A stretch of DNA of 64,000 nt, from NCBI GenBank assembly GCA_973895155.1, contig OZ316893.1, positions 17,080,645 through 17,144,644 on the forward strand. Direction: 5' to 3'. A program made the translations under genes and the position numbers. The notes beneath the pieces were generated by a model. The model did no database searches. It saw only the letters and a program-made list of their open reading frames with translations, and had not been told where the DNA came from. This document shows, piece by piece, positions 5,765 to 61,353 of this stretch (positions are counted from its first letter, which is position 1; each line of letters opens with the position of its first letter). The DNA is from Marsupella aquatica. Its lineage: Eukaryota; Plantae; Marchantiophyta.

Positions 5765-5885
5765 AAAATGAATAACCGTTGGTCCTTGCTTACTACTTCC
5801 TAAATACTCTTGGTTGACCTCTAGTTGACACTTCTAAACCTAAAGAAAAACTATAATATCGCCGGTGTAATTTTTATCGTTTACA

Positions 5886-9979: not shown

Positions 9980-12900
9980 GACATGACATGTTAACATCAT
10001 GAAAAGCCTGAATAGACATCATGTCCTTCTCAGTGTGTGCTGCAAAGTTCCCACCCACTGAATGGTCACCAAACCTCAACCACAATCTCCACAAACGTAG
10101 AAAGAATGAAACCTTGGATGCTAACACAATACGGGACCTCAAGTCATGAACTGGAGAAAAGAAAATATCTAAGTAATCTGCACAAATCTCCAAGTACAAC
10201 TGAGTTCCTAAACTTTGTTCATGTCGTACATCTCTCCTCTCATACATATCTTTCAGACATTGCTGCACTCTTCTTGCTGCAATTCGTTGTGGACCTGCCC
10301 AATTCTGCCGGTCAGTCCTATTCACATCATCCCAAGCCATGCCATGTTCATGAATTGGATAATGATTGTAGACATTAGCTACATAACATAAAGATGCATG
10401 TTGATCTCCTAGCACCAGTAAAGAAGACACTTTGTCTAAGGGGTTTATCATCTTTTTCCCATTATGAGGTTGGTCTTGGTCACCAAAGCCATACAAATCC
10501 CCATTTGGTAGAATTGAAACACGGTATGTCCACCCTTCCCACCCAACTCCGTATCTTGGGTATGATCCATTCTGCCCTCTGTAATCTTCCAGCATCAACT
10601 TTCGGCGACGTGCATCACCATCACTAGCATGTCCAAGCAAAGGGCCTACCATAGCTCTACAATATTCATCCCAAAAAGCCTTTAACTAGACCCAATGCTC
10701 TCGTACCCAAGAAGCTGTGAACTTATTACAAGTTGGAAGTGCACACACAACCAATTTAGGTAAGGACTTATGTAGAGGATTCACAATCACAACTCGGGCA
10801 TACATGCACTTGGGGCATTGTTCAAATGTACTTACAATTTTATCATACCCCTCATCACCTTCACCAACTAGAATTTCCAAACCATAGGAGCATACATTAT
10901 GCTCTGAGGGTCCACAGAAACCAATGAGAGTATCATACTTTGCCTCCCACCTGAAACACAGACATGCAATTTTTCAATATCACAACAATTCCAGCCAAAC
11001 TGTGCTACTTGTAAAGTCATTAAAAAAACAATTGGAAAAATGTCCAGTTCCAATTACCTAGGGCGTTCTTTGATCCTTGTTTCATCCTCAGCAAAGATAA
11101 CAGGCACATCCCCCTCATTAATGCCCAATGAGTGCTTTGCAGCAGACAACACTCTAGCAATCTCCTGAAAGGTTTCCTTCCGTAACCTGGTTCGAAAAGG
11201 TGTGAGTTTTGCTCTATCACGTTTTAGGGTCACAAGGCTAGGGGCTGTCAAGTTTCGTACAAACAATGAGCAACTTGACGGCCCCCAAATTGGAACATAG
11301 CCTGAGCAATAGCTCGAGTCCTATTATTGTAACGATTACCTTTTGGCTTCCTGCCTAAATTGCGAGCTACATCCTTCAAGAAATCCCACAAACCCTCCTT
11401 ACCACCAAATGCACCATTCCTGTGTCCATTCAAAATACTCTTAAGAAACAATCTCAAATCCTTCCTATCTGCTGCAACTCCTAACAACTCCTCTAGTTTT
11501 CTTTTCCTGGTGCTCAAGGCACATACTTTCTGAGCCTGCAAAGCTAACAACCAACGCCCTTTTCATCGCATAGAGTTCAGCTTGTGCACTTGATCTCTTA
11601 ACTCTGGGTTGGTCAAAGAATCCAATTGTATACCACCAGCAGTGGTTCGGCTTCCTCTGTGGACTACTGCTTCCGCTTCCCTGTGCACCCGTCCACGAAA
11701 ATCATCTTCTAGTGTTATAGAATTACATTCACTACAAGTTAGATTTTCAAATCCTCCTCCATTCTGTGATAACCTCAAGCAATCCTTGTGTCTAAAACAG
11801 CCTGCATACTCACAACACAGTCTCTACTTGGATGGAAAACATCCAAGCAACAACGACTGATCATCCAAAATGCCGGAAATATCAAAAGATATACCCTTCC
11901 ATAACACTTGAGGCACACCTCTCTCTACCCATAATCCCCAGCAAAGCAAACTCAGACCAAGATCAACAGATTCACACACACCTGAACCTGAACTGCTGCC
12001 TGTTCGGGACCCATCATCTTTAAAGAACTTCAAAATCCCACTCTGACCAGGATGTAGGTCCCTAGAATCAGTCCTCTTTGGCCTGCCCCTCTTCCCTGAT
12101 CTCAAGGCAAGCATTTTTGTGTCATGCCTAGTCTCCAATGCATCCAAGTGATCTTGACTCACTAAGTGTGTCCTCAAATTGGGCTCCAAGGTAAGCTTCT
12201 TGGGGCACAAGTCAGTGTGAAGCATTCCACAGACAGTACAACGAACCTTAAACAGGAAAGACCTGTTTGCATACTCAGGAGTACTGGGATCAGGAACAAT
12301 AGAGAATAGTTTGCCATCATCCCCAAGCTCCACATTCAATCGCTGAACTATCTCAATGCCTACTTTGATGGCGTCTGCATGATCATATTCTGGCTTCTCA
12401 GAGATGTCTGCTACCTGAACCAAAGTAGAAGGAATGCCCCTTCTCCGACAATAGTTATCCTTATTGAAGACCAAGTGTTTGGTCTTAAAATTACTAAAGT
12501 AATTGGAGATGGATTTAGGGTTCTGAGAGTTGTCTACATTGCCATAAGTTTCCCTGCATTCAAGACACTCTAGATGCCCTCGAACATCTGTCCCCTCATC
12601 CCAGGTACGAATTCTCCAATTGTGATCACTATAACCCTTCTTATGAACCCATTTCTCTAACCTCATCCACTCATCTTTCCATAGCTTTGATGGGACATCT
12701 CCCATCAATTGTGACTCAAAAGAAGCCCTTACAGGGGAGGGTGCTGGTGCTATTGGCCCCAGCTCAGGTGCAGTATTCGGACCCAATGATGCAGGAGTGC
12801 AAGGATGACAGGGTACTGGTGGGATCCTCCCACCAGTACCAAGTTCTTGTTGTACAACAATAACTCTTCCATCCAGCTCAGACAGATCAATTAATTTCTC

Positions 12901-13095
12901 ATGTACAGGTTTCACTCGACCAGGAAGTCTCTCATCCCAAAAATCAAAGTCAAAGTCTAGAGTAGAGCCAATACGAGCCCTGAAATCATGTAGGGTGTGT
13001 CCTTCTTTGAATGACAAAACACAGATTGGTAAATCAGCCTTGTCATCCCCAACTTTGCGTATTAATTTAACAGAGTTGGGTTTAGGGGCTGCCAT
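9980..13095 (-). pseudogene. degenerate P-element/THAP9-like DDE transposase with N-terminal zinc fingers
   Basis: Fragments in order: CLEC..H and CTVC..H..H fingers, FAEDET, GHASDGD, QDQPHNGKK (DxxH), DRQN, FFLRLW. The C-terminus, which would carry the catalytic E, is cut at 9979. Confidence 0.55.
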
Positions 13096-13575
13096 TGCAA
13101 TACAAATCTAGAACATGCATAGCACCATTGCTTTTGGAGTCGAGCACAAAAAGACCTGCACAAATACATTTGAAATACACACAATGCAAACACATTAGGA
13201 TCTTCAAGAGATGCAATGACAACATACACATTCTCATGTAATATACATAATGTCAGCATACATTTAACAATAGAAGTGCTAATAGGCCAAAACACTTTAT
13301 AATGCAATCCGTCATACATGCAAATGTATTCAGTGAAAATCATGATATACCATTAAAGCTGGACAAAATATCCTTTTCGCCTGGTTTTCTAACAATTCCC
13401 GAGGTTTAGTGCTTCTGCTCATCAAAATGCAGCACTATTAGTGACCGTAATTATGACAAAATGTCAACACTAATAAAATTGGGTACTACCACCCATGATG
13501 CAGCTTAAGTATTTGCCTAGCTCATACCCCACTAAGACGTTGAAACCTAAGTAATAGGTTTGTTCATTATTCAGA

Positions 13576-13895: not shown

Positions 13896-14038
13896 TGTTG
13901 AAACACCACCAGAATAATGTTGATCTTCTCATTCATGTGTGTAGTCTTTATACATCAAGGTGGTTACTTTAATAGTAACTACCTAAGGTTTGGTGTTAAA
14001 CCTTACCCTAGAGTAGACTTAACCTATGGGTTCTAACA
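13896..14038 (-). repeat. copia 3' LTR
   Basis: TGTTGAAACACC...TTCTAACA, with an adjacent PPT (minus strand AAGGGGGAG, about 14039-14047). Confidence 0.93.
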
Positions 14039-14701
14039 CTCCCCCTTGGGTGCATCGCATCATAGGTTTGGTTAAGGTGATGCAACCATATTGAGTCTAC
14101 TGTGAGGGTGTTAACTATTTGATTGTGTAATGTAGTTTTAGTAAAAGAATGAGAAGATGGTGTTGATGTAGCCTCATTAAAACCTCCTCTCCTTTCTTGT
14201 AGGAGGAAAGAGTGCTACCATCTTTGGATGAAAAATGAATAGAGTGTCATATTGTAATTTACTATGTAGAGGTTGGGTTAAAATTGGTGTCGGTTGTTAT
14301 GGTCTTTAGTGGGGGAAGAATCCATGTATTGTGGGTTCTTGGTATTTGTAGTTTATGCGGTGTATTCTCTACTATGGGGTACGTTACTAATGTGCGGTGC
14401 TCTTGTAGTCGGGTTTGGTGTTGTGGTGTTTTCCCGAGTAATTTTGCGGATTCGTAGTCGGTGGCGTTGTGCCCTAGTCTTGGTTGGAGCTTGTGTTCTT
14501 GGTGGTCATGGGTTGCGCTCCGGTTGTCGGCTCCTTTCCTCTGGTGATTGATCGTCCCATCTCCATTCTAGAGGTTGTCCTCATCGCTTTTGTGAATGGT
14601 TGATGTTCAGATTCTTCTGTGTGTTGTTGTTGTGGATTTGATTAGGGTATCTGTTCTTCAATGCCCTCGGTCCGTTGCGTTCTCCCCCTGACATTTGGAT
14701 T

Positions 14702-17217
14702 TCAATTCGATTCCTGTAAGAGGGTGGACAAACGACGCATGCCGATTGATCGTGTTAGTGTTTTATGTATGGCAGGCGGTAACGATTTGGTTAGCAGGTC
14801 TGCATTGTTCAATTTGCTTGGGATCCATTTCACGTCGATGTTGTTGCCATGCTGTTCTCTTGCAAAGAAGAATTTGGGGGCGATCTGTTTAGTGCGTTCT
14901 CCTTTGATGAAGCCCGCTGCGATCTGTTCTACGCAAGGTCTGTTGTCTTCGAAGATGACGGTCGGTGAGGTGAGTATTTTCATACCTGTGTGATGTAGGA
15001 TATGATTAATTACGTTTCTTAGCCATAAGCATTCGCGACTTGCTTCGTACAATGCTATGATCTCTGAGTGGTTGGAGGATGTAGTTGTTAGACTCTGTTT
15101 GGTGCTCTTCCATGATATGGCTGTGGGTCCGGCCAGGAAAACATATCCTGTTTGTGACTTCGCATCTGCTGGGTCAGAGAGATAACCGGCATCTGTATAG
15201 CCAGTAAGAGTTGGTGTTAAGTCAGTAGGGAAGTATAATCCTAAATCTATAGTGCCACACAGGTAGCAAAGTACCCTTTTGATTCCATTCCAGTGTCGAA
15301 TGGTCGGCTGTGAGCTGTGCCTTGCTAGTAGGTTCACAACGAAGGCAATGTCTGGCCTCGTTTGGGTTGCCAAGAACATAAGCGCTCCTATTGCAGATAG
15401 GTAGGGCTTGTCTGAGCCAAGTAGTGGCTCGTTTTCAGTACGCTTTCGGAACATGTCTTTGTCCCTATCTAGGGATCTGATGTCCATAGGTGAGTTCACA
15501 GCGTATGCTTTGTCCATGTTGAACTGCTGCAGCATTCTCTTTGTGTATGTGGACTGGTGGAGGAGTATGCCTTCTTTGAGGTGCTCAAATTGTAATCCTA
15601 GGCAGAATGTAGTCCTGCCTAGGTCCCTCATCTCAAAAACTCTCTTGAGTAATTGTATTGTTTCCACCATGATTTTCTTAGTGCCGAATAAGTTCAGGTC
15701 GTCCACATATATTGCGATTATGATAAACTCGCTGCCCTCTCTCTTGATGAATAGGCAGGGTGCTATTTCGGAGTTTTGGAATCCCATTGCAATCATTTCT
15801 GATTTAAATCGCTGGTACCATGTGCGTCCGCTCTGCTTGAGCCCATACATTGATCGGAGCACTTGGACTGCAAGGCGGATACGCGCCTTCATCCTCTTTG
15901 GGTCCGTTATTACTTCTTTCATGGCGATGTTGTGTGATGTGCGTTGTAGTACTGATGCATCAGTGTGCCCGAATGATCCTTCTCTCGTCTGAGTTAATTC
16001 TTTACTTTGGTGCTGCCCCTTTTCATGGTATTCCACTCGTTTGATTAACTCAGGAGGGGCTTCCATGTATATCACTTTGTCAAGATGGCCGTATAGGTAG
16101 GCCGTCACTATGTCCATCTGGTGCATGGATAGCCCGTGGTGTATGGAGAAAGCAATCAAGTATCGATATGTGATAACGTCCATGACTGGTGCATATATTA
16201 GGTCGTAGTCCCTTCCTGGTATTTGGGTAAATCCTTTGGCCACCAATCGGGCCTTGTACCTTGCGACCTCTCCATTTGCATTTCTTTTTATGATGAAGGT
16301 CCATTTGTAGCCAGTCAGGTGTATATCTAGGGTTGCTGGTGTTATTCTTCTGAATACTTGTCTGGAGATTAGTGAGTCGAGTTCCGAATTGATGGCCTCC
16401 TCCCACTTGGGCCAGTCAGGTTGTCTCTGTGCTTCTGCTGTCATCTTCGGGTCTGGTAATTATTTTTCCAGTACCTGTGATATCTGGAATGCGAACTGGT
16501 CGTCTATCTGAGTATTTTCTCTATCCCAAATTTGACCCGTTTGTTGGTAATTTATAGCGATTTTGTCATTCTCAATATTTGTGGTTGGTTGAGTTGGTAT
16601 TGTTGTTGATGACTGTCTTTGAGTTGCTGTAGGTATCGTTCTTCTTTGGCGTGGTTGATGATCCGTGGCCCCAATCGGGCGTCCCCGTTTGGCCCATGGT
16701 GGGGCCTCGGTTGCGGGTGTGCCCTCTTGTTCGATTCTTGCTGGTGTATTCGCTGCAGGTACATGTGAGCGTGTCACCTTTGCTGCATCTGCGAAGGAGT
16801 CTGGCAGTTGTTCCATCATTTTGGTAAGATGGATTATCCTCTGAACTTCTGTGTCAGCTTGGGCTGTTCTTGGATCGTTCCAAAATGCAGATTGTATTTG
16901 CCATTCAAGCTCAGTATTTATGTTCTTATCTCTATTCGTTCCTGTTATCAGAGTAGGGAATATATGCTCGTAAAAATGGCAATCCATGAACCTTGCTTTG
17001 AATATGTTTGCTGTTGTTGGTTCCAGGTATCGGATGATGGAGGTCGAGTCAAAGCCTATGTAAATCCCTTTCTGCCTCTGGGGTCCCATTTTTGTGCGCT
17101 TAGGGCCCAGGATCGGGACTAATACTTGGCATCCGAATGTCCTTAAATGGGATATATTTGGAGTTGTTCCGAATGCTAGGTGGTGGGGCGTCTTATCGTT
17201 GAATGCAGATGGTCTGT
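14702..17217 (-). pseudogene. pol: copia pol: integrase C-terminus, RT and RNase H
   Basis: YKARLVAKGFTQ, YGLKQSGRTWY, YVDDL, GYTDAGY, SSNHSEIIAL, RTKQIAPKFFF. Confidence 0.95.
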
Positions 17218-20200
17218 TGTGACACGGGTAACGTGTCACTTAACCAAACCCCGGTCGTAGATTAGGTCTTATACGGTCGTTAGGACCGTAGCCATAGTGT
17301 AGGATAGCACGTATAGCCGTCTATTGCCTTTATGAATAGATTAGGAGTAGGTTAAGTTGACCGAATGATTACGAGTTGAGGAGGAGGATTATTACACGCG
17401 ACCAAGGTACGGTGGCGGCGGCGGAGTAAAAATCCGTTAGAAGAATCACGCTTGGACCGAGGCGCCGACTTCAGGTCATTATCAACAACTAAAACGGCCT
17501 AGCCTTCTCACGCTCGGGCTCATCCTGGCACCTCCATAAGAGAGGAGCCGATGGCACTACGGGCCATTTGCTCATTTCTACCTTTTGGAATTCGCGGACG
17601 CTGCCATTCACTCGCCTTTTTGGCTCGAATCAAGCTAACCTTTACAAGGAGATTATCGAGGGATAAGAGCGGAATGTGGCGAGATTTAGTCAGGACGAGC
17701 AAGGCCTCCACAAGCACGAGGACCAGCCGGGTGGGAACGTAGACTCAATGAACCGGACTACAAGGTTAGTATGACCCTTACAGCCTTGGGATTTTGGACC
17801 TTGTTTGGCGAGGTAGGTGCTAAGTTCTCCGAGACTTACTGGTACTCTTGTCCCAAGAAAGCCACTTACGAACAAAGATACGCGAAGCTGGTGGCCAAAG
17901 TAGCACTGGTTAATTGCGAGAAGATAACCATCACCAGGGATTCCAGCTACAACGAGCTGCGAGACTACGTCACCGAGCTATATCTCAGCGAGGAAGGGCT
18001 TAGATCGGTAGCAGAGGTGATTCTTGAGGTCCCAGCAAAGTTCTTTAGGCTGAAGGGCAGCCAACGGCTTACTCAAGCGGAGTTCGACAAGATTCTGGGG
18101 TACCTAGACCAGCAAATCACAGCCAAAAAGCGCCAAGAAGACATCAGCAGACAACGGGAAGCGGCGCGTAATCTTATGTTCCTCGGGGAAAGTTCCAATG
18201 CCTTTGACTGGGATATGGCTACCCCAACACCACCAGCACCTCAGCCGATGACCACCGGCATACCTCCGAACCGGTCCCAAGTCTGTCCAGTGATCAACAC
18301 AGAGTGTTCTTTGGGTTCCGAGCGAGTTAGTCCGCAACTCGAGCAGCGTTCTCGTAAGCGGGCAAGGACGATGCCGGCCCTCAAATCAACAACGCGAACC
18401 AACACCGCGCCTGTGCCTGCCCCGACAAACCCCCCGGCCAACCAGACCCGACGTCCCCCGGATAACCCGAAGTCCAACTTATTACAGGTAATCCGTGTCC
18501 CCGAAGTAGTCTGGATCGCGATCAAGAAACTCGACCATGCGGACTATCTCAAGGAGCATCAGTTGGAGCAGTTCGCCCACTTGCTATGGAGGCCGTGCGC
18601 CACCGGGCCAAAGGAGATTTGTGAGTTCATCTCCAATTTCGACACAGACGCATCAACCACCAAGGTTTCGGGACAGGTTTTATCACTCACGGAGCATCAG
18701 TTAAATGCAAATCTTCTGCCTACCAACCGGGCCGGTGCCGGTTGAACTCCAAATTCGGGATAAGGAGTATACACCTCAGCACTTCAAACCCGAGGGTAAG
18801 ATGGACAACGGATACAAGTAGGGGTCGTGCACCAACTTAATCTGCATGGAGCGGCTTAACTTCATACGGACTACCCTACACATGATTGAGCCACGATCTG
18901 AGATCTCCCTCTGCACGATCGTGCAGGTGGAACAGTACAAATGGCGGAACTGGGCCCAATTCTTTTACCGAAGATTCTCGGGGGAGCTGAAGCGGGCTCA
19001 GGGTGGTATGGCTATTGGGGGGAAGACTTACTTGGGAAGTCATATCGCCATCATCTTCGCCTGGTACAAGGCACGGCGGGAGGCCAGGGGAAAGAATATG
19101 GCCACCTCAGCCCCGACTAATGTCACCCCTGCCCTAGAGGAGGCAACCCCGAGCGCGCAGACTACCGCTCCTCGGCCAAACCCCGACCCGGAGGCCCCGA
19201 CTAATACTCCGTCACCTCCTCTTGTTGAAAATTCCACCGCCCCCTTCCGTCGAGCCTCCGCTACCTGCGATACAACCACCCCCAATCCCTCCACCACCTG
19301 AAGAAACCTTCCCCTCCCCAGCGCAGACTACGGAGGAGATCGTTGCCCCGCCCGAGGAACCACCGGTACCCGAGAGGATGGAGGACTACCAAGTAGCCTC
19401 GGGGACCATGGCCTACGACCTGGTCCAGAAGTTTAGCCAGACTATGTCTGGGGAGCTGGCGACGTACATCGGACAACAAGTCGCGGTGTACTTTCAACCA
19501 GCCTTCTTCATGTTAGAGCACCAACCACGGATCGTGAGCCGCTTGGAAGAAGAACTCATGGCGAAGGGGAATGAGATCGGGCGCCTCCAAATGCTGGTAG
19601 AGCACCTCAAGGAGGAGGCCACTACCCGCCGCGAGGAGTTAGTCCGCACCGTCGAACAGAGGGACGGACTAACATAGGAGTTGAGCGGAGCGCAAGCAGA
19701 TCTCAAGAAGCTGGACGACACCGTGCTTCAATTACGCTTAGAATCTTCGGCTCGGGTTACCAGCCTGACCGACCTCAACAAACAGTTCCTGTAGGCAGCT
19801 CAGCAGGTAGCTAGTCTCTCCGCCGAACGGGATAAATTGCTAGCGCAGGACCAGACCCATCGCAACTCCATTAACCAGCTCAATCTAGAGGTAGCGCGGC
19901 TCCAGATAGAGGCCGATGAAGCTGCAAACGAGGCGGAGGAGGCGGTGTGGGACAACAAGGCCTTGCAGGACCGCGTTACCCTGCTTGTCCTCCAGCGGGG
20001 AAAACCTGGGCCCACCTCTGATCAAGGCGGCTCGAGGTCTCGCCCCGACAGGGGGACCAACCCTGGTCCAACCACAGCACACACATAAGGGGCGGTTAGC
20101 AAAGGGTGGAAGCAGGCGCCGCGCGGGGCAGTTAAGTCAGCGGCATCTTTTGGTTAGGCGTAACGATAGAATAGCTGTCATTAGGCGCCGATTAGCGGCA

Positions 20201-21055
20201 GTAGGAAGAATTAGGGCCGGATCAGTTAGGATCAACCAACGTAGGATGGAGTCCATCAACGGACTAGATTTTTGTCAGTAGGCTTGGTCGCTGCCATTCC
20301 GGTCAGCACCCTTGTCGTCGACGGTCAACCAGTCAGAGCGGGCGGCCGTTAGTCAGTAGGTAGTATCCCGGAAGGTAGTATCCTCCCGTTCTCTTCCGCA
20401 ACTGTAGTATTTAGGCTTCCCCTTCCGCTATGGAAGGGGGGGAAGGCTTAGTTATCTCGGCAGAAGAAAAGGCGAGACACGGGGAGTCCCGGCCTGAGTA
20501 GGGTCAGAGCGCACCAAGGAGTGAGAGCCAGAGTCGAGCTTGTTGGGCAAGTGCGAGGCGGGGCCTCGTAGAGACTGGGCATCGACTGCCATTGGGCCTG
20601 CTGACCCCCTTAGAAGTCGAGTCAACCATGTAAACTGATGCTTCGCTGAGTAAATATAGTCTTTTCCCTCTAATGTTTCCGCGAGTAACTGGTGTTTTGT
20701 GTATGCTTTGTCTGGGCAAAGGCGCCATTTCAAGGGACGTACCGGGTGCGGACCAATGGTAGGGATTGCCACCCATTGCATGTCAAAGGTTCTATCGCAT
20801 CGATGGCTTGAAAGCCCCAAGCCGGGAGTTAGTCAGAGTCACTAACTGAGGGGATATTCCAGCGGTGGAAAACAAATATACCTATGACTAGTACGAATTA
20901 TGTAAGTGTTATACCAGTAAGTTTATCGACTTAGCCCGACTTAGGGCTAAACGGGGCCACTACACACCTCCTTGCCCGAACCCTCACCCCTACTGGTGGT
21001 CGAGGTTGCGCCATGGAACTAAACTGGATTTAAGGCCCAGGTTAGGGACGCGACA
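17218..21055 (+). mobile_element. protein-coding solo LTR-like element, family Y (3838 bp), inserted in the copia integrase
   Basis: TGTGAC...GCGACA termini and perfect TSD TCTGT (17213-17 and 21056-60). No gag or pol inside. Confidence 0.9.
17771..20088 (+). pseudogene. LTR-encoded protein, family Y (frameshifted)
   Basis: ORFs 17771-18745, 18846-19301, 19222-19677 and 19837-20088. ERLNFIRTTLHMIEPRSEIS...GGKTYLGSHI aligns with family X ERLGFQRYALHMMEPRGEIS...GGKAYFASHI. Confidence 0.82.
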
Positions 21056-22378
21056 TCTGTATTGGAGGAGGGCAGCTGCATGGAGTACCGCGTGGCCCCA
21101 TGCTGATGTTGGGAGTTTCGTCTGCATCAATAGAGGTCTGGCTATAATCTGTAACCTTTTGATGAGGGATTCGGCTATTCCGTTCTGGAAGTGGGCATGG
21201 GCTACTGGGTACTGTATATTTATCCCTGCTGTTGTGCAGAAGTCTTCGAATGTCTAGGATGAAAATTCGCCAGCATTGTCAACCCTGAGGTGTCTTATCG
21301 GGTTGTCAGGGAATTGTGCTTTCAATTTTAGGATATGTGCCAATATCCTTGAAAACACTAAGTTTCTGGTTGATAGGAGTGATACTTGTGACCACTTCGA
21401 GGAAGCATCAATGATCACTAGGAAGAATCGGAAGGGGCCGATAGGTGGGTGTATGGGACCGCATACGTCTGCATGGAGTCTTTCCAAGAAGCTCGGGATG
21501 TTTTTGTTTGTTTTGCTTGGTGATGGTCTTGTGATCATTTTTCCCTGTGAGCAGGCGAGGCATGGAGTCTATATGGATCTTGGATGTACTGTGTTTGGTA
21601 TTCCCTGTGTGTCCTTTATGATTCTGTGAAACATACTGGTGCCTGGGTGTCCCAGTCTCTGGTGCCATATGTCTGTGATTGAGGGTGGCTGTATGGCAGT
21701 GTGGTAACTCTGTGTTTTTGTGGCATAATATCCCGTAGGGTAGGCATCGAAGGTCTCTTTGACTTCGTTTCCATTGGGGGTTTTGGCAATAATATGTAAT
21801 ACTTCTTGTGTTTTTATCATGTTGGTGTGTATGTGCAGGTTATTTGCACATATGTCTTTGAAACTGAGCAAGTTTCTCGTGGCTTTTGGGGCGTATATCG
21901 CTGCTGAGATGTGGATGATTGACCCTCTCGGTAGTATTATTATTGCAGGTCCATATCCTTCCTCTAGTTGGTGTTGGCCTAGTATGGTAGTAACTCATCT
22001 TTGGGAAGGGATTATTTTGCTAAAGTCTTTTCTCTCCCGCAGGATTGTGTGGGTTGTCCCACTATCAACGATGCAAAAATCCAAATCATTCATGGTTGGG
22101 TTTTGGTTTACCAAGTGGATTTCTGGTAAGATTTCAGCAGATTCTAGAAAAGCTCCATGGGTCTCAAATTCCGGTTGTGTTAAGCTCTTTTTGTATAGAG
22201 CTACCAGGTGGGTTGGGGCGCGGCATACCTTTTGTGTATGGCCTCTAGTTCCACACTTGTAGCATGTTATCGGGTTGTCTTGTCTCCCTCTTTGGCTGCT
22301 TCTGTCTTGGTCTCTCTGTTGTGGGTATCTGGATCCTCTCCTCCAGGTTGTTCTTTCGTTGTTGTATCTCCCCCTGCC
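21056..22378 (-). pseudogene. pol: copia zinc knuckle, protease, GAG-pre-integrase and integrase N-part
   Basis: CIVDSGTTHTIL, WHQRLGHPG, and FLERLHADVCGPIHPP..FRFFLVIIDASSKWS (Bianca-like). Confidence 0.88.
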
Positions 22379-23140
22379 TCAGCCCCTGCCTCCATATTGT
22401 GGTCTTCTTCCTCCCCCTTGGTTATACCCTCCTCTGCCTCGGAATGTTCCTCTGCCTCTTTGGTATTGACCTCTTTCTCTGTATTGGTTCCTGTTCCTGT
22501 TTTGTGTATTTTGGGGTACAGTATAATGTGTTTCAGTGTTGGGTTGCGGGGGAAGGGTTCCAGGGGGTCTTTCTCTCGTGTTTTGTAGTAGGAGGATTTG
22601 ATGCTTTTCTGCTAGTAGCATGTGTGCCATTAATTCTGAGTATTTGGTGAATCTCATGTTCCGATATTGAGTAGATAGGATCAGATTTGTTGCGTGAAAT
22701 GTTGATAAGGTTTTCTCGATTTGTTCTTCGTCTCCCACCGGTTGGTTGCAGATGGCTAGTTGTGAGGTAATCCTGAATAACTCACTGTTGTATTCGGCAA
22801 TTGTTTTGAAATCTTGAACCCGCAGGTTTACCCAGTCGTGCCGTGCCGCGGGCAGGAATATCGTCCTTGTGTGATCGAACCGTGCTTGCAGCTCACCCCA
22901 TAGGATACGAGGATTATATTTGTTCATATATTGCCGCCTTAGTGGTTCTGCCAAATGATGTCTTACGAGTATTAGAGCTTTAGCTTTTTGCTGAAGTGTT
23001 GGTCCCGCGTCCGTTAGAGTAGCATCTTGGAGGTCCTTTGATGTCAAATGCGCCTCTACATCGAGTGACCATGATAGGTAGTTAGATCCGTCGATGCTTA
23101 ATGCTTGGAAGAGCAATTTTTCCATTGTATTGGTAGCCAT
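22379..23140 (-). CDS. gag: copia (Bianca) gag
   Basis: ALSIDGSNYLSWSLDVEAHL...W.NLRVQDFKTIAEYNSELFRI is typical of Bianca gag. Confidence 0.9.
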   Translation of the reverse strand: MATNTMEKLLFQALSIDGSNYLSWSLDVEAHLTSKDLQDATLTDAGPTLQQKAKALILVRHHLAEPLRRQYMNKYNPRILWGELQARFDHTRTIFLPAARHDWVNLRVQDFKTIAEYNSELFRITSQLAICNQPVGDEEQIEKTLSTFHATNLILSTQYRNMRFTKYSELMAHMLLAEKHQILLLQNTRERPPGTLPPQPNTETHYTVPQNTQNRNRNQYRERGQYQRGRGTFRGRGGYNQGGGRRPQYGGRG

Positions 23141-24144
23141 CTGCTTTCACTAGTTATATATTGGTTCCCAATGTTTGGAGAGGATAATTATGATCCAAAT
23201 CTCAATTGGTGATTGTAAAGTTTCAATATGTGGTATAATTCTGAAATTTCGGAGGGAGAGGAAAGAAGTGGATTATCTTGATTGGTGTCAAAGTGTCAAA
23301 CACTTGTCAAGGAGCATAAGCGGCTTTTCTCCCCAAAAGACTACCTAATACCTGCTCCATATCATACCAGGGTCACAAAGGATTGACAAAACTTCTGAAA
23401 TGTGCCTACAATGACTAATCACTCCATACATAAGTAGTTTCAACTCTCCACTTCTAGAGAGGTAGTCCCCTTGACTACTTTTGTACTCACACCCTTCCCC
23501 TCTCCTCTACTCCAAGGATCAGCAAGGGGGATCTCTGCTCCAAGCTGTCACCTTAGAGAAGAGTCTCACACAAACACCCAAGAACCAAAGTACTTTCCTC
23601 TTCAAGCTTAATCTCCTCAAGACCCTCAAATTAGTGTTACCCCTCAACCTTGCCCCCTGGCCTTGGTTTGGGTCCACACATCCCCTTTGAGCTCTAGAAA
23701 AGGCTCTTCTATCTAAGTACTCTTCCTCTTGTTCTTACTTCTTGTTAACACCATACACCAAGCAAAATACTTTCCACCCTCAAGCTATAATCCTCTCTAA
23801 GTCTCAAAGTAGTGCTCTATCTTAACCTTGCCTCTTGGCCTTGGTTTTGTACTGGCACATCCCCTTCAAGCTTAGACCAAGATTACATCATAGCATGGAC
23901 TCTTCTCTTGCTCTCATATGCTTCAAATGCACTCACACTTAATGGTCACAATGAAGATTAGCAAGTCTCCTTTTATTGCATCACCTTTACAACAAAAGTT
24001 TACTACACATTCTCCACACTAAGCATGGACCACCTCTCCCTTCTCAAGCTTAGCCCTACCTTGGCAAGGTAGAGATTCCACTTAAGAGATGAGACTCCCG
24101 GTCCCTAACAAATGAAAACTTCCTCCTTATATACTATTCTCCTT

Positions 24145-24350
24145 CCACACCACACCACACCACACCAAGGTAGCCCACCAAGGACCAAGGACCAAGGACC
24201 AAAGTAGAGGACCAAGGTAGAGGACCAAAGTAGCCCACCAAGGACCAAGGACCAAAGTAGAGGACCAAAGTAGCCCACCAAGGACCAAGGACCAAAGTAG
24301 CCCACCAAGGACCAAGGACCAAGGTAGCCCACCAAGGACCAAGGTCCAAT
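24145..24350. repeat. compound tandem array (CACAC)n followed by GGACCAA/AGTAGCCCACCA units in the copia leader
   Basis: Direct reading of the sequence. Confidence 0.9.
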
Positions 24351-25620
24351 CACCAAAGTCCTACTAACTACCAAAGTCACACTACAACAAAAGTCCAACT
24401 AACTACCACTCCCACTCAAGCTCCTTCACCTTGTGATTGCCTGGTCTATTCAACCATCTCCTAGCTGCCCTTGTGCTTGACTTATTCCTGCCTTGTGGTA
24501 GCCTCGTCGAAGCGTTTTTACACTTAGTCGGATTTCGTTATTTGGGAAAAACTATAATTCCCCGGCCCATATTGTACCCACCGCCAAAAATCACCCATAA
24601 GGCCAAAAAGACTTTTGAGTAGATCCATAGATTTTCTTGACATAGGGCTATGTCCTGGTTTACTAAGATCTAAACAAAACCCTATAACCAATTTTCTAAA
24701 ATTAGGTAAAGAGGGTTAATTCTTATGTTTTCCAAAATTCTTCTCAACTTTGAGATTCTCCCAAAAAGTAACCAAAGGTAACCAAGTTCTCCCACAAGTT
24801 TCCAGGGATAGAGTGGACCATATTTAACCTATTTTGCAACTTGGAACCCCTACCTTTTCCCATCAGCTATTTTTCCCAAGACCCGCTATTTGGTAACTTT
24901 AAGTTTTGCCAAAATACTTACAACTCCTAGGTTAAGACCCCACTTGACTTTGTGACTTTTATGTGTGGTCTAGGGACTACCTAGCATCCATAGGGTGAGT
25001 CTTAGCAAAACTTATCACTCAAAAGTATCGGTCATGCCTTCGGCCCGACTTGCCGACTACCGTAACTTTTTTCCGCCCTTACCAAATAACTTACTCAACT
25101 CTTGATACTTCTTAGAGAAACATGTCCTCTCCCTCAATTTATTTCCCTACTCTACTTCCCTAGTTATTAAGTTACCTTAAACCTAACAACTCTGCTAATC
25201 ACTAAACTATGTAATTACTACTCCTTGAAAGCAAAAAACTGACGCATTTCCTACTCAAGCCTCCCTTGAGCCATTCCACACAGAGCTTGGAGTGGGTGTT
25301 GTAAATTCGCCTCAATTAATGTCGTTTCTTTTCTTTGGAATTCTGCTCTTCTTAGTTGTGAATGTTGCATTCGTTGCTCCAATAACCGTTTTTAATCGTT
25401 GGATGCTATTTGTGGTGTCATTCAACGTGGGGGACTTCATCCTCATCCTCCTCGAATTTGTGGTCCCATTTTTTGTGCCAATTAGATTGTCTAAAAGGGA
25501 GAAGAGAAATCTCCCTCGCGTCCAATGATTTCTCAGTCAGAAAAAAATTTCCTTGATTTGTAGCCAAGCCACTCTCATTCGGTTCTACATCGATTTCCTT
25601 GAAAACAATTGTAGAGCGTT

Positions 25621-25635
25621 ATCGTGCTGATAACG
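25621..25635 (-). promoter_or_regulatory. Bianca-type primer binding site (half tRNA-iMet)
   Basis: Minus strand CGTTATCAGCACGAT immediately after the 5' LTR. Confidence 0.85.
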
Positions 25636-27308
25636 TGTTGAAACACCATCAGAATAATGTTGATCTTCTCATTCATGTGTGTAGTCTTTATACATCGAGG
25701 TGGTTACTTTAATAGTAACTACCTAAGGTTTGGTGTTAAACCTTACCCTAGAGTAGACTTCTTGGAATGGTTTTTTTTATAAATTTTAATACCGTGAAAG
25801 ACCCCACGGATAGGGGGAACAACAGCCCTTAATACAGGGACAGCAACAGCACACTAGCGAGCCACAAAGAGAGCCCAAAAGCACAAAAGAGAGCATCAAA
25901 GCCCCAGGGAGAGCCCCCCCTCAAAGAAGGGAAATAACACCGATCAAGAGAGCACCCATGCCCTTCCCACAGCAGCCCCCCAAAAAGCAGACCCCTCAAT
26001 CAGCAACGCCGCCGCTAGAGGGCACCAAGAGAATCCTGTCCCCATCCCGTCTCAGCCAGATTTGCCTCGTTCCCCGCAACCATTCCTGAGCCCGGTTCAA
26101 CCGAGAGCGACGCCGCCCAAAGCGTAAACCAGCCCCAACCGCATGGATGTGGTTGGCAGTCTCAGCAAGCATCAGGCCCATGTCAAATGAACGTCCCACC
26201 TTATCAGCGAACATATGTTCATTTCTTCCCAGCCAAATCATCCAGAGAGTCTGATATACACAAAAGATCCTAGCAGTGTGAATAGGCTCCGGTCCTGTCG
26301 ATGCATCAAGAATAGCCAGCAGACCACCTCCAATGGGTAAGCGAAGCTTCGTCAAAATCCTGTTACACATCCTCCAGCAACATGAGGCATGGGAACAGTC
26401 AATGAACAAATGTTGCATCGTCTCCAAGACCCCACAACAAAGCTTGCAATTCCCAGTACCAGCCTGGATACGGAGGGCCCGTTGACCAGTAAACAATCCA
26501 CCAACCAGGATCCGCCAGATAAAGGTTTTTGCTCTGCAGGAGAGGTCAGAAATCCACAGCTTCTTCCATCCAATGCACCATTCAATTTCCGACCAGTGTG
26601 AGGACCAGCACCTATTAAGCAGCACATGAAGGCTCATCTTGGGTCTCAAGAACTGGTAGACCCTGCAGTTGGTGATCTGAAAGTCCTTGAGAGGTTCTGC
26701 CCTGTCAGACCAGCGCCACTGTCTGGCCGGAGGATCCCTGTCCCACCTGCAGGCAGTTGACTCCCAAATTCTCCCTAGGAACGCTCTAGCCAGCCCTCTG
26801 TGCTCCCCCGTGAATCCTCGCAGCACCTGCCCCCTAAGCGGAAGGTCTTTCCAGCCCCCTGTCTCAACCGACCATCCGTCCTGAATTGATCTCATTCCCA
26901 AGTGTCCGCGAATAGCAGTGACTCCTACAATGTCCACATTTGGCAATGAATTGAAATCTACCATACATCTAATTGCATCGTTAATGCTCCAGCATCCAGG
27001 GGCACCATATCTCCCAAGACAAAAAGCCAGATGGGCACGCAGCTCCTCCCAAGCCTTCCATAGACCACTTGTATACCTGAGACCACCACCTGCCCTAGGA
27101 GTACAGAGCAGAAGCCTATCCTTGAACGTGTAATTGTTTCTTCTGATCACCTTGTAATTCAACCATCCCATTAAAGATAAGTTGGCTGCCAGCATCTTCG
27201 ACCATTCCCTGTCTAGATACTCTAGGGCCTTAGTGAACCATTGTGATAATAATGCATTGGAGTGGCTTCTGAAGACCCTAGAGTAGACTTAACCTATGGG
27301 TTCTAACA
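25636..27308 (-). repeat. copia 5' LTR, split by a LINE insertion
   Basis: 25636-25760 plus 27291-27308 reconstitute the 143-bp LTR. Confidence 0.9.
25761..27274 (-). mobile_element. 5'-truncated L1-clade LINE (zf-RVT C-terminus)
   Basis: 16-bp TSD ACCCTAGAGTAGACTT (25745-60 and 27275-90). ORF 25996-27195 has CKLCCGVLETMQHLFIDC and WMIWLGRN. Confidence 0.92.
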
Positions 27309-29869: not shown

Positions 29870-30545
29870 AGCAGCGACGCCACACTCCCGGCACCCACCT
29901 CCTGTTTGAGCAGCTACAACGCAGCACTTGCAACAGCCACACTCCCGCCCGCACTCCTTGTTTGAGCAACAACACAGCAGTTCACATAAACTTTCCTATC
30001 ATTTCAGCAAGCAGGAACGTAGCACACTCCCTCAACCAAGACAATAGCACACCTATACACTCCAACCTTGCAGCGCAACGCTCTCGCCCGATCCTTCACT
30101 CCCGGGTTCACTCCAAGCAGCAGTGCAGCCGAGAAGTCTCGCTCTCCCCTTCACTCTAAGCAGCAGTGCAGCTGAGAAGTCTCGCTCTCCCCTTCACTCT
30201 AAGCAGCAGCGCAGCCAAGAACGACCTCGATCCTTCACTCCCAAGTAGCAGCGCGCAGTCAAGAACTCTTGGTTGATCCTTCACTTCAAGCAGCAGCGGC
30301 AGCAACGCAGCCGAGAGCGCAACACTCTCGCTCTCCCCTTCACTCCAAGGCACAGCCAACAACTCTCGCTTGATCCTTCGCTCTAAGGAGCAATGCAGCC
30401 GATAAATGTTGCTTGATCCTTCACTCCAAGCAGCCGTAGCAGCAGCGCAGGCGAGACCACAACACTCTCGCTCAATCCTTCTTCACTCGCATCCGAGGTC
30501 ACAACACTTTCTCTCGATCCTTCTTTGCTCCAAGCAGCAGCACAC
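29870..30545. repeat. degenerate tandem array (about 40-bp units, TCCTTCACTC(C/T)AAGCAGCAG core)
   Basis: More than ten diverged units are visible. Confidence 0.75.
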
Positions 30546-36038: not shown

Positions 36039-36045
36039 TATAAAA
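36039..36045 (+). promoter_or_regulatory. TATA box upstream of the LTR-encoded ORF
   Basis: GGGTATAAAAGGC, conserved in copy 3 (minus strand, 60394-60400). Confidence 0.55.
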
Positions 36046-36095
36046 GGCAAGCCCTTTCCTGCCTTTGAATTGTCAGTTCACTCCTCGCGCCAGCT

Positions 36096-56402: not shown

Positions 56403-56421
56403 CCCCCTCCATCTAGTGCCA
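56403..56421 (-). promoter_or_regulatory. primer binding site complementary to plant tRNA-Asn
   Basis: Minus strand TGGCACTAGATGGAGGG versus the expected TGGCGCTAGAAGGAGGG (2 mismatches; tRNA sequence from memory). Confidence 0.7.
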
Positions 56422-57336
56422 AAAACAAAGGCTATGTCACGCCAAAAGCCTTGTCCTTGTGTGGATTTTGGCTTTGACGGGCATAATCTTCATTAGTTTT
56501 GACGTTTTGGGCAAGGAGGGATGTGCAAACTAGACCTTATTCCCGCAATCTAGCGCTAAGTGCGCCTATTCCTACTTGTAAAAACGTCATTGGTATAGTT
56601 TGTGTTCCGCCACCGGAACATACCTTAAGTCGATAGCTGGATCGACCCCGGCTTAAGGGCTTTTAAGCCTTTGTATTGTCTGCCTCTGATCTGGATCCGA
56701 TGATATGGTTATCCAACCCGGTCTCGCAACCACTATCCATAGCCTACACCCCATGCATGGCTTGGATGATGCATTTGGCCAAGCATTCTCGATCTACCCG
56801 TATACGAGATTCATATAGGCAACTGAACTCACACACATACAATCTCGGTTTACACAAAGGAAATGGTGGGAAAAGACTTTACTTCAGAATCCGTCATACG
56901 CATACACACGGTTGACTCGACATCTCTTGAGTAGACAGGCCCAACGGCAGAGCGACGTACACTACAACGGAGGCCGGCTCCGCACTCGCCCAACGAGCTT
57001 AGTCGTACCCTCCCTCCATGGTATCTCCTACTCACAAAGGCCGGGACTCCCCGCACATCCTGCGGATACCCGGTTTTGAAACTAAAATCCTCCTTGCCTC
57101 TACTGAGGGGTGCACTAAATACTAAGAGCTGGGGTCCGGACCGACCACGTGCTCAAATCTAAGCTATCCCAGATTCTAAACTCTGCTAACTATTAGGCCG
57201 TAAAATGGCATGTCTTAATTCTAAGATCCTAACTACAAAGGTTGGTTGGATAGGACAGTGCCGCTAACTAGTTTTGGCGCTTGTCCTTATCGCCTGACTA
57301 TCCTATTTCTAACTCTATCCTACACCTATCCCGTTG

Positions 57337-60330
57337 CTAATGTCTGGCACGCTTGCTAGATCCGCCATAGTTGGATTTGGAGCGGCCATCCCGCTGTCTT
57401 CTGAGCCTATCGATGTCCTGCTTGAGGAGCTGGACCTGGTCTAGCAAAGATTTGTTCTCTCGCTTTGCCTCGTCCGTGTCCTCTACGGCTTCTTGGCATG
57501 CCTCCTCCAGTTGCTGGGCGTCGCTCGTCAGCTTGTCCACCAACTGGGCCTGCTTTGAGGCTTCTCCTTGAAGCCGTGCCACTTCCGCTTTCAGGACGTC
57601 TATCTCGGCTGTATCCCGCTGGGCCCGAGCGTCGGCCTCCTCCACATCCTTTTGCCAGATGACGGCTTGTCCCTTCAAACCGTCAATCTGGGTTTGGAGC
57701 CGTGCAATCTCAGCATCCTTCCCAACTCCGGTCTGCTCTACTAAGGATGCCCGGGCCCTAGCTTCGGCCACCTGATCTTCAGTGGCCACTACCTGAGGTC
57801 GCAGCTGTTGGAGTTTGGTCTCTTGGGCTGCCACTTTGTCTTTTAGGTGGGTAGACTCAACCCAATACCGCTCTATCCTCTGCGTAGCCTCAGCCTGCAC
57901 ATGACCTGCTCGCACGGCCGTGACCAACTCTTGGTTGAAGAAGTAGGCCACCTTTCGTGCCATGTACTCCCCGGTATCCCGTGCAATTTGTTGAGAGAAG
58001 TCTCCCAGCAACCCATTCAGAAACGTGCCTGGTGCAAAGAGTTCCGGGTAGTCCAGACTATGTCCCTCCAAATTCGGGCAAGGACAGACCTCAGCCCACG
58101 CAGGAGTTGGAGTGGAGACATCCAGCCCTTGAGGTATGACGGTAGAGGGGGTTGGGTTCACTAGGGCTGGGCGGTTCTCTTGAACAGCCGTGGAGGGTGG
58201 CGGGATCCCCTCTGCCACTGTCATCTCAGGCTTGGGTCTGGCCTTTGCCAACCCGGCTTCAATCGCGGTGACCCAGTTGATCGCGTCCAGGGTCACGATA
58301 ACCGCATCTTTGGTTACATTTGGAGGGGCGGCAGCGGTTGCTTGCGGGGCCGGGGTAGTAGGGCTTACGGCCGCCAGACTTTGGGCCTCAAGCTGAGGTC
58401 GTCTCTCCTGGGCTGGGAATATCCACTTTGATGGGGTCAGCTCGGGCTTGTTGATACGAGGGAGGCTTCGACGGTCAAAATGGGTATACCACTCGATGAT
58501 GATCTTGATGTGGCTAGCAAAGTAAGCCTTTCTGCCAAGGTACAAAGTCTTCCTTCTCCGCTCCATCTCCTTGTGGAACTTCTTGACAAAGGACGCCCAC
58601 TTCCTAGGCCGGTAGTTCTCAACTTGTATGACCTGGGTGACGGATATTTTGCCCCTTGGTTCCATCATGTGGAGGGCGTAACGCTGGAACTCCAGTCGTT
58701 CTGCTACCTCCGGGATGAGGCATGTCCTCATCAAAAATCCGTTGTCCACTGCCCCCTTGGCCGAGAAGCTAGAGGACTGATACTTGGCTCCCTTGCCCCC
58801 GGGAGCCTATGATTCTACCCGATTTAGTCCTTAGGGTAGGCCAAAAATCATCTTAAGACGTGCCTCATTGAGATACATCACTCTCCTGTGCACCCCAGGT
58901 TTGTTGGCAGGCCTCGTCAAAGTTCTGGATGAACTCCGTCACGTCCTGCCCATAGTACCTGCTCCCATTCCAAGGGAGAGAGGCGAGGTGCTCAAACCCT
59001 TGGGTCTTCCAGAAGCATGCATGCTTGGGGTGGAGGATGTTTTTGTGGACATTCTCCCCCATGCGATGCATGGTCAGCTTGGCCACTGCAACTGTGGCCA
59101 AAGGCAGCCAGATACAGCTGCGGGTTCCTTTCTCTTCCTACCCCGGGACTGGTTCGGGGTATTTACAAACGACAGGAAATAGCAAACAGTAATAGGAAAC
59201 AACAAACAGTAATAGGAAACAGAAACTGGTAACAGGAAAATGAGTGGTAATTTTTTTGAATTTTTTTTGAATTTTTTTTTGAATTTTTTTGTTGTTGGAA
59301 AAAAACATTTTTTTTGAATTTTGAATTTTTTTTGCTAGCGCCCAAAGCTAGCCAAAAAATGTTGTAATTTAATTTTTTGTGGAAAATGTGACTTTTTAGA
59401 AAATATTTTCACATGGTTATTTTTCCTGGTAACAATAATTTTTTGCTGGTACCAGTAAACCTGTTTCCTGTTGATTGTCACGCATGCCATACCCACTGGT
59501 TCCCGGGGTGACTGGAAGAGGGGGACATTTCCCCATCCTCTCTATCGGGTGGCGGTAGTGCTACCACCGTAAGTATTGGTGCGGGGCCGCTACAGTCACC
59601 GTGTTATCCCCTCGGCCTTGTGGGAGTGGCGTCGGGTTGCTCGGCGCATGTTGATTTGGACCTCGCGGCCGCCGGTTCAGGGGAGGGTGAGCCTCCTCGT
59701 CTTTGGAACTAATGTTCACCGCGTTTACCACGGATCGCACCAGGAGGGGTGGTGCGACCGGTGGCGGAGATCATCTTGGCTGAGGCCGAGGTGGTGTTGG
59801 CGTGGGCACCAATGAGTTGGCGCCGGTTGTATCTAGAGGAGGCGCCATAAGATTCAGGAAACTTGTGGGGAAGCTGAGTGAGGTCAGGATAAGCGCTCCA
59901 CCCGTGGATGCGGTACCAAACTGGTAGTCTATGGAGGCCTGGACTTTGGCGGGGATGTGATCGAAGTGGTGTCGTTGTAAGTCGATCGTGCCCGGGAGTG
60001 TGAAGACCTTATCGGAAGCCAAAGGAGTGCCTCCTGGAAACCAACGTACTTTAGGCCGTCGAAGAAGTATTCGGAGATCTCATCGGGACAATAGAGCTCG
60101 CTCTGGAACGGGAGGCTGAAATCTCCATTATAGTGAGAGCGCCCGGCCAGATGGATGAGTCATTTGTACTGCCTTTCGGTTTCGTACCAGCGCGGATTGA
60201 CCTCGGCTAGTGACTTCGCTAAATGATTTCCGATGGATAGAAATTGAAGCCAAAACCGAAGGGCAGAACTGGACATAATAGTGACAGACATATAGGGGAA
60301 AGGCGGTGGATGACTAAAGAGCAGATGAGT
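57337..60330 (-). pseudogene. LTR-encoded protein, family X; intact 470-aa C-terminal ORF at 57337-58749
   Basis: ORFs 59771-60022, 58865-59101 and 57337-58749 match copies 1 and 2. Confidence 0.82.
59157..59494. mobile_element. 338-bp MITE, MULE-like
   Basis: GGGTAT...ATACCC termini, inverted subterminal ACAGGAAA motifs, and 9-bp TSD ACTGGTTC(G/C). Absent from copy 2. Confidence 0.82.
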
Positions 60331-61353
60331 GAGCTGGGATCAGAGCTAGCGCGACGGGTGAAGTGCTGGTGCTTCGCGAGAGAATGGCCCGCCTTTTATA
60401 CCCTGAGAGCTCATCGGCCAAACGGCCCCTTCCTCCTTTTGATAGGCCAATCCTTTCACGCTTGCAGTGCACCGGCCACTCCGCAGGTCCGGGTCAGAGC
60501 GTGTCAGCAAGCCTCCCCTTGAGTCTTTATACGGACCCGAGGGGACCTCCCCACACATCTGAAAACCCGGGGGTACGAATGGCGCTCCGTCGCCAGCCTG
60601 AGTGTAAATGTTCCTTATTGACTAATGATGTCCTAGTTGTGATTACTACCTACTTTAGTGTCGTTATGCTAATTATTACGGACTACGATGTCCATAGAGC
60701 GCGTGCTAATCATGGATTAGGCCGGATCACTCATTAACCGCCGTGCTGGCGGCGTCACAGGTGATGTTGTTGATAACATATTCTAACAAAGGTTGGGAAG
60801 ATTGAAAAATAAATATGGACTTAGAGAGGGATCTCAGAAAAAATTTAAAAACATTAAGAGGGGGTAAAAATAATCTTAAAGTTCAAAAATACAAAGGATA
60901 CACCTTGTCTAAAAAAATCTGAAAAAAACTTTAAAAATCTCTATAGTACAAAATAACCTCAGTAGGCTCCCCAACAAAGTAACAGTCACCATAGAAATAA
61001 CTCTAGTAATGACTCTAATGGACCAAACACTTTTCTTTTGCCACCCAAATAACCCATAGGTGTAGGAAAAAGTTGCCCCCCAAAAAGCTGTCAAAGCAAA
61101 TTTTGACATACTTAAGGGGAATCTTCACACAAAGCAAAGGTATGCTATCTACCAAAATCTACATCTATAATATGGAATCTTGCCACTATTAGTCCCTTGT
61201 TCGCTTACAAAAAACACAAAAGGCTGAATCAAATTGTAGCCGTTCATTAAAAAATTAGATTTTAATCACCATCGGATGATCCAAAAACCACCTTAACTCC
61301 CCCCTCATTGTCCATTAGTGGTCCTGCAGGCATGCGGAAGCTACCAATGTGTT

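Follow-up and report, generated by a model that had tools for sequence, protein, structure and literature searches.

Plant long terminal repeats (LTRs) are usually seen as non-coding, and solo-LTR formation as the removal of retrotransposon genes by the host. A 64-kb window of the Marsupella aquatica genome (64,000 nucleotides; contig OZ316893.1 of assembly GCA_973895155.1, positions 17,080,645 to 17,144,644) contains a unit at window positions 17218 to 21055, here assigned to family Y, that has LTR-type ends and a conserved gene but no gag or pol. What is this unit, and what might its gene do? We read it as a likely solo LTR of the Ty3/gypsy type carrying a broken, conserved gene of approximately 770 codons, likely in U3 (the unique 3' region of the LTR); the core of the product is predicted to have a fold of the VANC21/plant mobile domain (PMD) type, and the product may be a nuclear DNA-binding anti-silencing factor. 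The probability of this reading as a whole was put at roughly 0.68. About 60% of this likely LTR consists of a conserved gene that outlasts the removal of the other genes.

An insertion with a conserved gene in its putative U3

The family-Y unit splits the minus-strand pol gene of a Ty1/copia element, 3' of the integrase DDE motifs and just ahead of an SH3-like domain (PF25597, E 3.5e-14). Its termini are TGT...ACA, and the TCTGT duplication on its two sides is perfect. Since TG...CA ends with a matching 5-mer are too common by chance (1357 such units were found in a scan of the window), the insertion was settled by its empty site. When contigs from four public runs (X1 to X4, from two studies; one run may be the source sample) were compared with the window, those of X1, X3 and X4, and none of X2, joined position 17212 to 21056 with five letters fitting either side, showing that the insert is missing from other members of the host family and that the duplication is not a chance match. 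The coordinates, the 3838-bp length, the ends, the duplication and the copia-integrase site given in a preliminary description of this locus were all confirmed; it had also reported the absence of gag and pol, and none of the five open reading frame (ORF) pieces of the unit carried a retroelement Pfam domain. Summed contig depth stepped up at the ends of the element in all four runs; in X1 it was 21,617 to 170,764 over element bins and 885 to 2,192 in the flanks, values that are not copy numbers. X1 contributed 9 contigs, X2 3 and X4 7 that entered unlike flanks behind 21055 (agreement 0.44 to 0.53), and two contigs of a further run, assigned by its label to a third organism, likewise stopped matching at this position. 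The depth step and the divergence of contigs exactly behind 21055 show that the unit belongs to a real repeat family with fixed ends. The host copia element, which is putatively Bianca-like by its motifs, is probably young because its LTRs are near-identical, and the insert lying inside it would be younger.

The gene occupies the unit from 554 bp past its start to 967 bp short of its end and begins at the same 'M...FW' position as in its relatives. It is broken by two frameshifts (near 18705-18720 and near 19228) and three stops (at 18819, 19675 and 19792). Most of these breaks look private to this copy; other copies differed from it at four of the five. The stop at 18819 was contradicted by 98-100% of contig depth in all four runs, the stop at 19792 by 98, 67, 100 and 98%, and the first frameshift by 100, 96 and 94% in the three runs that cover it. 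Two observations weigh against privacy of the remaining breaks: only 31, 38, 21 and 65% of contig depth differed at the second frameshift, and the 40 differences listed, out of 762, do not include the stop at 19675. No unbroken family-Y copy was seen in the contigs of the four runs.

Three copies of a second family, X, lie in the same window (Table 1). The peptides LHMIEPRSEIS, W..FF...F..E and GGKTYLGSHI were present in the family-Y product, and tblastn linked family Y to all three family-X copies (E 2e-25, 1e-24 and 7e-23), bearing out the earlier claim that the two products are homologs at the protein level. That description had also given the family-Y product a different N-terminal domain, which proved wrong: the domain is the same one, diverged. 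P0078, an intact relative of 906 aa that spans the N-domain, core and coiled coil, matched both the N-terminal 120 residues of Y (E 9e-13) and the upstream frames of X copies 2 and 3; when the N-domains of Y and X were aligned directly, only 1 to 3 of 1000 shuffles scored better (three pieces). The C-terminal parts of Y and X aligned with a score of 117, and the shuffles reached at most 68 (0 of 500 as high). Judged by these alignments, the Y and X genes are homologous end to end. Core identity was approximately 36-51%, and no DNA match was found in the coding part. The two families share their ends (TGTGAC...GACA), the gene over its full extent, 3' non-coding blocks and a conserved box, TAGTATTTAG; they are nevertheless separate, and the 5' 550 bp of Y has no DNA match in X.

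A profile of six window pieces retrieved 74 homologs at E<=0.001 from 1.84 billion representatives. Of the ten top clusters, five were proteins annotated in Calypogeia fissa, a leafy liverwort, which points to gene callers annotating such LTR genes as host genes; four were unnamed Logan proteins and one carried 'hypothetical' names only. This make-up suggests that the family's host is a liverwort. Ratios of nonsynonymous to synonymous substitution (dN/dS) among the X copies were 0.075, 0.055 and 0.065 for the core and 0.20 for the C-terminus. Between Y and X copy 1 the ratio was 0.11 over 73 codons of the C-half of the core, where dS was near saturation; a ratio of 0.70 in the N-part of the core (56 codons) speaks against constraint there. 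These ratios argue for purifying selection on the gene across related families, and the signal is clear both among the X copies and between Y and X copy 1 over the 73 codons. Word-based protein searches, which count as weak evidence, returned one match of 215 candidates for the core of X copy 1 and none for the N-terminal piece of Y, either among 1132 candidates or among 2331 longer proteins. A related-locus scan using P0083 gave 74 pattern stretches, none of which was confirmed, and an exact 22-nt pattern from the 3' end of family Y had no match in metagenome and viral contigs.

A third family, Z (40674-45478, plus strand), was also observed. It is 4805 bp long (TGTGA...TGACA) and contains a long decayed gene with the same core domain (26-28% identity to X copy 1) and a long coiled coil; its flanks, TGTTG and ACAAA, do not match. 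In X copy 3, an A/T-rich insert of approximately 340 bp (59156-59496) lies within the gene and is missing from X copy 2.

The 3' part of the unit links it to an LTR. The last 676 bp of Y aligned colinearly with the 3' ends of X copies 1 and 3, up to the final GACA, with z of 14.3 and 15.5, respectively (100 shuffles each); three controls gave z of 0.0, -0.3 and -0.6, and the 3' end of family Z was not homologous to that of Y (z 0.0). X copy 3 is followed by a site resembling a primer binding site (PBS), by gag with Retrotrans_gag/Ty3_capsid matches (E 6e-7) and by a protease, and its flanks (TCACC and TAGCC) form no matching duplication. Because no duplication is present and the PBS-like site, gag and protease follow, X copy 3 is most likely a 5' LTR and its homolog Y a solo LTR. 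The gag-protease of X copy 3, starting at 56306, is split by an L1 element of approximately 7 kb, resumes at 47992-46350 and breaks off before reverse transcriptase.

Exact matches to TAGTATTTAG occurred four times in the window (20405-20414, 7591-7600, 38912-38921 and 57115-57124), all at the equivalent spot of Y and X copies 1, 2 and 3; in copies that retain their 3' end, the distance to it was 651-690 bp. The gene ends 317 bp upstream of this box in Y. We read the box as a likely TATA-like promoter element, which would place the gene in U3. The first seven letters of the VANC21 target motif, YAGTATTAY, also fit TAGTATTTAG (PMC5735166). A TATA-like role is the likelier of the two because the box occurs once per LTR, and its likeness to a VANC21-type target may be chance.

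Predicted fold and possible function

A fold model was built for the core of X copy 1, which is unbroken, with 60 sequences, and reached a pLDDT (predicted local distance difference test) of 95. The best of 48,161 solved chains was VANC21 in complex with DNA, with a Z of 7.5 over 186 of 198 residues and a root-mean-square deviation of 4.2; the next row had a Z of only 2.6. VANC21 has entries PDB 9LNK and 9LNJ, and the latter also gave a Z of 7.5. In Foldseek, VANC21 ranked third with a TM (template modeling) score of 0.47. Atlas placed DUF1985 and PMD clusters at 0.89 (14% of the members of the PMD cluster are PMD), matches that serve as leads only, and one weak homolog, P0047, matched DUF1985 at E 8e-5, under the cut-off. 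The PMD and the DUF1985 of VANC are reported to be structurally alike (bioRxiv 2024.09.27.615353; PMC13547354). PMD-A clades are gypsy-encoded (PMC5418596), and a PMD is found in the extra ORF of 57% of Ogre elements (PMC6317226). VANC21 itself recognizes tandem arrays of a 9-base motif on DNA and strips methylation from its own family (PMC5735166). From the model, we tentatively propose, at a little under even odds, that the family-Y product would bind DNA in the nucleus and thereby protect its own family from silencing.

Several results weigh against this proposal. The Z of 7.5 is below the caution line of 8, the Foldseek E value was 1.1 and identity was 11%, and the fold was modelled on the core of X copy 1, not on the broken core of Y. 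No Pfam family passed for the Y, X or Z pieces, PMD and DUF1985 included, and neither of these two was among the best 25 of the 31 families listed for the 60 aligned members. Family Y held no tandem arrays of a short motif; among 4-6-mers in its non-coding parts, none rose above shuffles (best p 0.055). The host PMD proteins MAIN and MAIL1 act in favor of silencing (PMC5418596), and the fold alone thus leaves the direction of the effect unfixed. In other searches, Foldseek gave no match at E<=0.001 in PDB or in the viral library, and profile searches of solved structures returned nothing real, with VANC21 not listed. The N-domain model resembled generic helical bundles and nothing more specific (4280 rows at Z>=2, the best with a Z of 6.1) and had no usable Atlas match.

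The same solo-LTR structure could house a protein with another job, such as control of LTR transcription, tethering of the integration complex or a coiled-coil scaffold. We regard this as a serious possibility, though one that falls well short of even odds. It is favored by the middling fold match and by the missing motif arrays, and by the range of effects recorded for the fold, which in host proteins either supports silencing, as noted for MAIN/MAIL1, or counters Polycomb (bioRxiv 2024.09.27.615353); the TRP28 ORFs of Retand have likewise been proposed as transcription regulators (PMC11963269). Against it, the sole solved match is a transposon-encoded, DNA-bound anti-silencing protein standing 4.9 Z above the next row, and the core holds nine conserved basic columns in which at least half of the residues are K or R.

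We envisage the following course of events, in which the insertion and the selection on the gene are shown and the other steps are proposed. A family-Y unit, one member of a repeat family with fixed ends, entered a young copia element and produced a 5-bp duplication. What inserted would have been a full element, from which LTR-LTR recombination would have deleted gag-pol, leaving one LTR. The gene fills this LTR and has been retained by purifying selection across related families. The genomic RNA would carry a gene in U3 a single time, at its 3' end, and reverse transcription would copy it to both ends of the element; it would then stay whole in each solo LTR, as is the case with sag of mouse mammary tumor virus (MMTV). 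The arrangement probably originated when the U3 boundary came to lie further upstream and so took in an Athila/Tat-type extra ORF in sense orientation. As a last and tentative step, held at the same slightly-below-even odds as the proposal itself, the protein (helical N-domain, VANC/PMD-fold core, coiled coil, a motif resembling a nuclear localization signal (NLS) and no membrane segment) may bind family DNA and act in trans against silencing. A wider claim is doubtful: that in liverwort Ty3/gypsy elements an anti-silencing gene with the VANC/PMD fold was relocated to the LTR, which would give two copies per element, turn each solo LTR into a free-standing counter-defense gene acting in trans on its family and mean that the fold employed as VANC by eudicot DNA transposons was so used already in early land-plant retroelements. 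If true, the recombination that normally disarms a retrotransposon would instead spread an anti-silencing factor.

Alternative structures and products

The structure of the unit is best read as a solo LTR that has the gene in its U3. The preliminary description had called it a solo LTR of a second family; the LTR-type ends, the 5-bp duplication, the lack of terminal repeats and the 676-bp homology to the X copy 3 end abutting a PBS-like site and gag-protease support this indirectly. Self-search and repeat search detected no terminal direct repeats, and inverted repeats did not extend beyond 3 bp. A terminal-repeat retrotransposon in miniature (TRIM) or a large retrotransposon derivative (LARD) was ruled out, as two terminal direct repeats are missing.

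Several points count against the solo-LTR reading. No family-Y copy was seen beside a PBS, a polypurine tract (PPT) or gag-pol in the contig flanks, where shared junctions collapse into one contig, and for the same reason the absence of a PBS from the flank consensus behind 21055 is not decisive. The 13-nt gap between the end of X copy 3 and its PBS-like site is longer than usual. The flanks of X copy 3 agree at three of five letters, so this copy might instead be a solo insertion old enough for its duplication to have decayed. In addition, homology to X was not evident for the 5' 550 bp of Y (z of 1.0 and 2.5, both at or below the best shuffle).

These points lend some weight to a standalone, non-autonomous one-gene unit with integrase-type ends that never stood in a paired LTR structure and was moved in trans by some route: no paired Y copy was seen, contigs behind 21055 enter mixed flanks, and the link of X copy 3 to its PBS has the gap and the partial flank match just described. 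We consider such a unit improbable, as the 3' end of Y is homologous to the very end of X copy 3 that abuts a PBS and gag, and we know of no way to make cDNA without a PBS and a PPT.

The solo LTR is preferred far more strongly over a non-autonomous DNA transposon (VANDAL/MULE-like or Ginger-like, MULE being a Mutator-like element) with a VANC-type gene. TGT...ACA ends occur in Ginger elements as well, and the target-site duplication of MULEs is usually 9 bp. Although VANC is a MULE gene (PMC5735166), this origin is very unlikely given the 5-bp duplication, the lack of terminal inverted repeats beyond 3 bp, the homology to an LTR beside PBS-gag and the absence of a transposase in the Pfam scan.

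An equally slim chance was given to an env-like membrane protein: the label env-like is often given to extra ORFs that plant elements carry in sense orientation (PMC7264820), and 4 of the 60 aligned relatives weakly matched Transposase_32, but no transmembrane-grade segment was present (highest Kyte-Doolittle 19-mer 1.46 in eight sequences), a basic NLS-like K[KR]x[KR] motif occurred in Y piece 1, family-X copies 1 and 3 and all three intact relatives, and the viral fold library gave no match at E<=0.001.

Known systems and other features of the window

The closest parallels are the extra ORFs of plant non-chromovirus Ty3/gypsy elements (PMD PF10536 in Ogre, Transposase_28 in Retand, ORF1 in Athila), which, like the family-Y gene, are accessory genes conserved within families and combine a globular domain of plant transposable elements with a low-complexity linker and a coiled coil (PMC6317226, PMC7264820, PMC11963269, PMC5418596). 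Very long LTRs (up to approximately 5 kb) and 5-bp duplications occur in the Ogre, Retand and Athila lineages, as in Y. The extra ORFs in those lineages are described as internal, either preceding gag or following pol ahead of the 3' LTR (PMC7264820, PMC11963269, PMC6317226), whereas the family-Y gene lies inside the TG...CA unit. Y further differs in matching no Pfam family at the cut-off, in having an extra, unmatched N-terminal domain and in having its named relatives in a leafy liverwort. As for Athila traits, Y has a 5-bp duplication, and the PBS-like site of X copy 3 may resemble a tRNA-Asn PBS; the window contained no tRNA gene and no reverse transcriptase linked to Y or X copy 3, and Rfam gave no match. 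A tRNA-Asn PBS together with a 5-bp duplication is listed for Athila (12%), TatII (15%) and Retand (4%) (PMC6317226 supplement 3).

VANC21, from VANDAL21 of Arabidopsis, is, like the family-Y product, transposon-encoded and is the best fold match to the core as modelled on X copy 1; it has a predicted coiled-coil multimerization part (PMC13547354), and the family-Y gene also has a coiled coil. VANC is a gene of eudicot Mutator-like DNA transposons with a DUF1985 match and a tandem motif (PMC5735166); the family-Y gene lies in a likely LTR, the modelled core has 11% identity, and neither DUF1985 nor arrays were found. MMTV sag offers a likeness in layout, in that this U3 gene persists in solo LTRs: of 527 sag contigs, 490 lack any other retroviral gene (PMC4667437). 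MMTV is a vertebrate retrovirus and sag encodes an unrelated immune-stimulating protein, so only the layout is alike. No paper on a protein gene inside the LTRs of plant retrotransposons was found in a literature search whose scope left out most subscription papers and the Repbase reports, and the accessible parts of PMC13468544, PMC12885004, PMC12859917 and PMC11728184 hold nothing on genes inside LTRs. Within these sources, PMD-type and coiled-coil extra ORFs of plant gypsy elements are known as internal genes, and what is new is an accessory gene inside a likely LTR. Plant gypsy extra ORFs have been functionless on record for two decades, and the VANC21 fold link makes a function directly testable. 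The finding also bears on the origin of the PMD/VANC fold, for which retrotransposons and host genes are both candidates, and adds a likely bryophyte branch.

Table 1. Coordinates of the family-Y unit, its parts and related features (window positions)
Feature	Position	Strand	Remarks
Family-Y unit, likely solo LTR of a Ty3/gypsy family	17218..21055	+	3838 bp; begins TGTGACAC, finishes GCGACA
Target-site duplication TCTGT, left copy	17213..17217	+	Sequence; empty-site joint
Target-site duplication TCTGT, right copy	21056..21060	+	Sequence; empty-site joint
8-bp perfect hairpin at extreme 5' end of the unit	17219..17239	+	Weak: z -1.97, 7/200 shuffles as good
Accessory gene, ~770 codons, broken	17771..20088	+	ATG at same place as in relatives
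N-terminal helical domain, ~120 aa	17771..18130	+	Common to family X and P0078/P0008; model pLDDT 84; no specific fold match
Conserved core domain, ~190 aa	18524..19076	+	Homologous to family-X core
Helical and coiled-coil C-terminal part	19375..20088	+	Homologous to family-X counterpart
Non-coding 3' part, likely R/U5	20380..21055	+	Colinear with family-X LTR 3' ends; ~69% identity in aligned columns
Conserved box TAGTATTTAG, likely a TATA-like promoter element	20405..20414	+	651 bp from 3' end
Host Ty1/copia element	13896..27308	-	143-bp LTRs with 2 mismatches; own duplication ATCAG
Family-X copy 1	5871-8271		Without its 5' part
Family-X copy 2	35679-39096		Without its 3' part
Family-X copy 3, likely 5' LTR	56435..60759	-	4325 bp; homolog of Y
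PBS-like site	56403..56421	-	13 nt past end of X copy 3, then gag (ATG at 56306)

Small hairpins were observed at the start of the units, differing in sequence from family to family: in Y, at 35679-35718 in X copy 2, at 60720-60759 in X copy 3 and at 40674-40713 in family Z. They were unconvincing, with folding z of -1.97 for Y and -0.50, -0.37 and -1.84 for the other three, respectively. Within the 3' part of family Y, folding gave z of -2.78 at 20405-20500 (3/200 shuffles) and -1.32 at 20800-20880.

In the host copia element, a 5'-truncated L1 piece with a zf-RVT match and a 16-bp duplication lies in the 5' LTR (25761-27290). Short tandem arrays were present in its leader (24168-24362; 13/27-bp units) and elsewhere in the window at 30096-30539 and 61344-61522 (43-bp and 58-bp units). 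A second Ty3/gypsy piece with gag, protease and reverse transcriptase occupies 196-3091 on the minus strand; no LTR or PBS was found for it, and alignment of its gag and protease with their counterparts next to X copy 3 scored 95 and 147. Directly behind X copy 1 (8265-13107), there are frames of 315, 237 and 427 aa without Pfam matches, the first with a CxC...CKH motif that may be SWIM-like; this stretch suggests a decayed DNA transposon.

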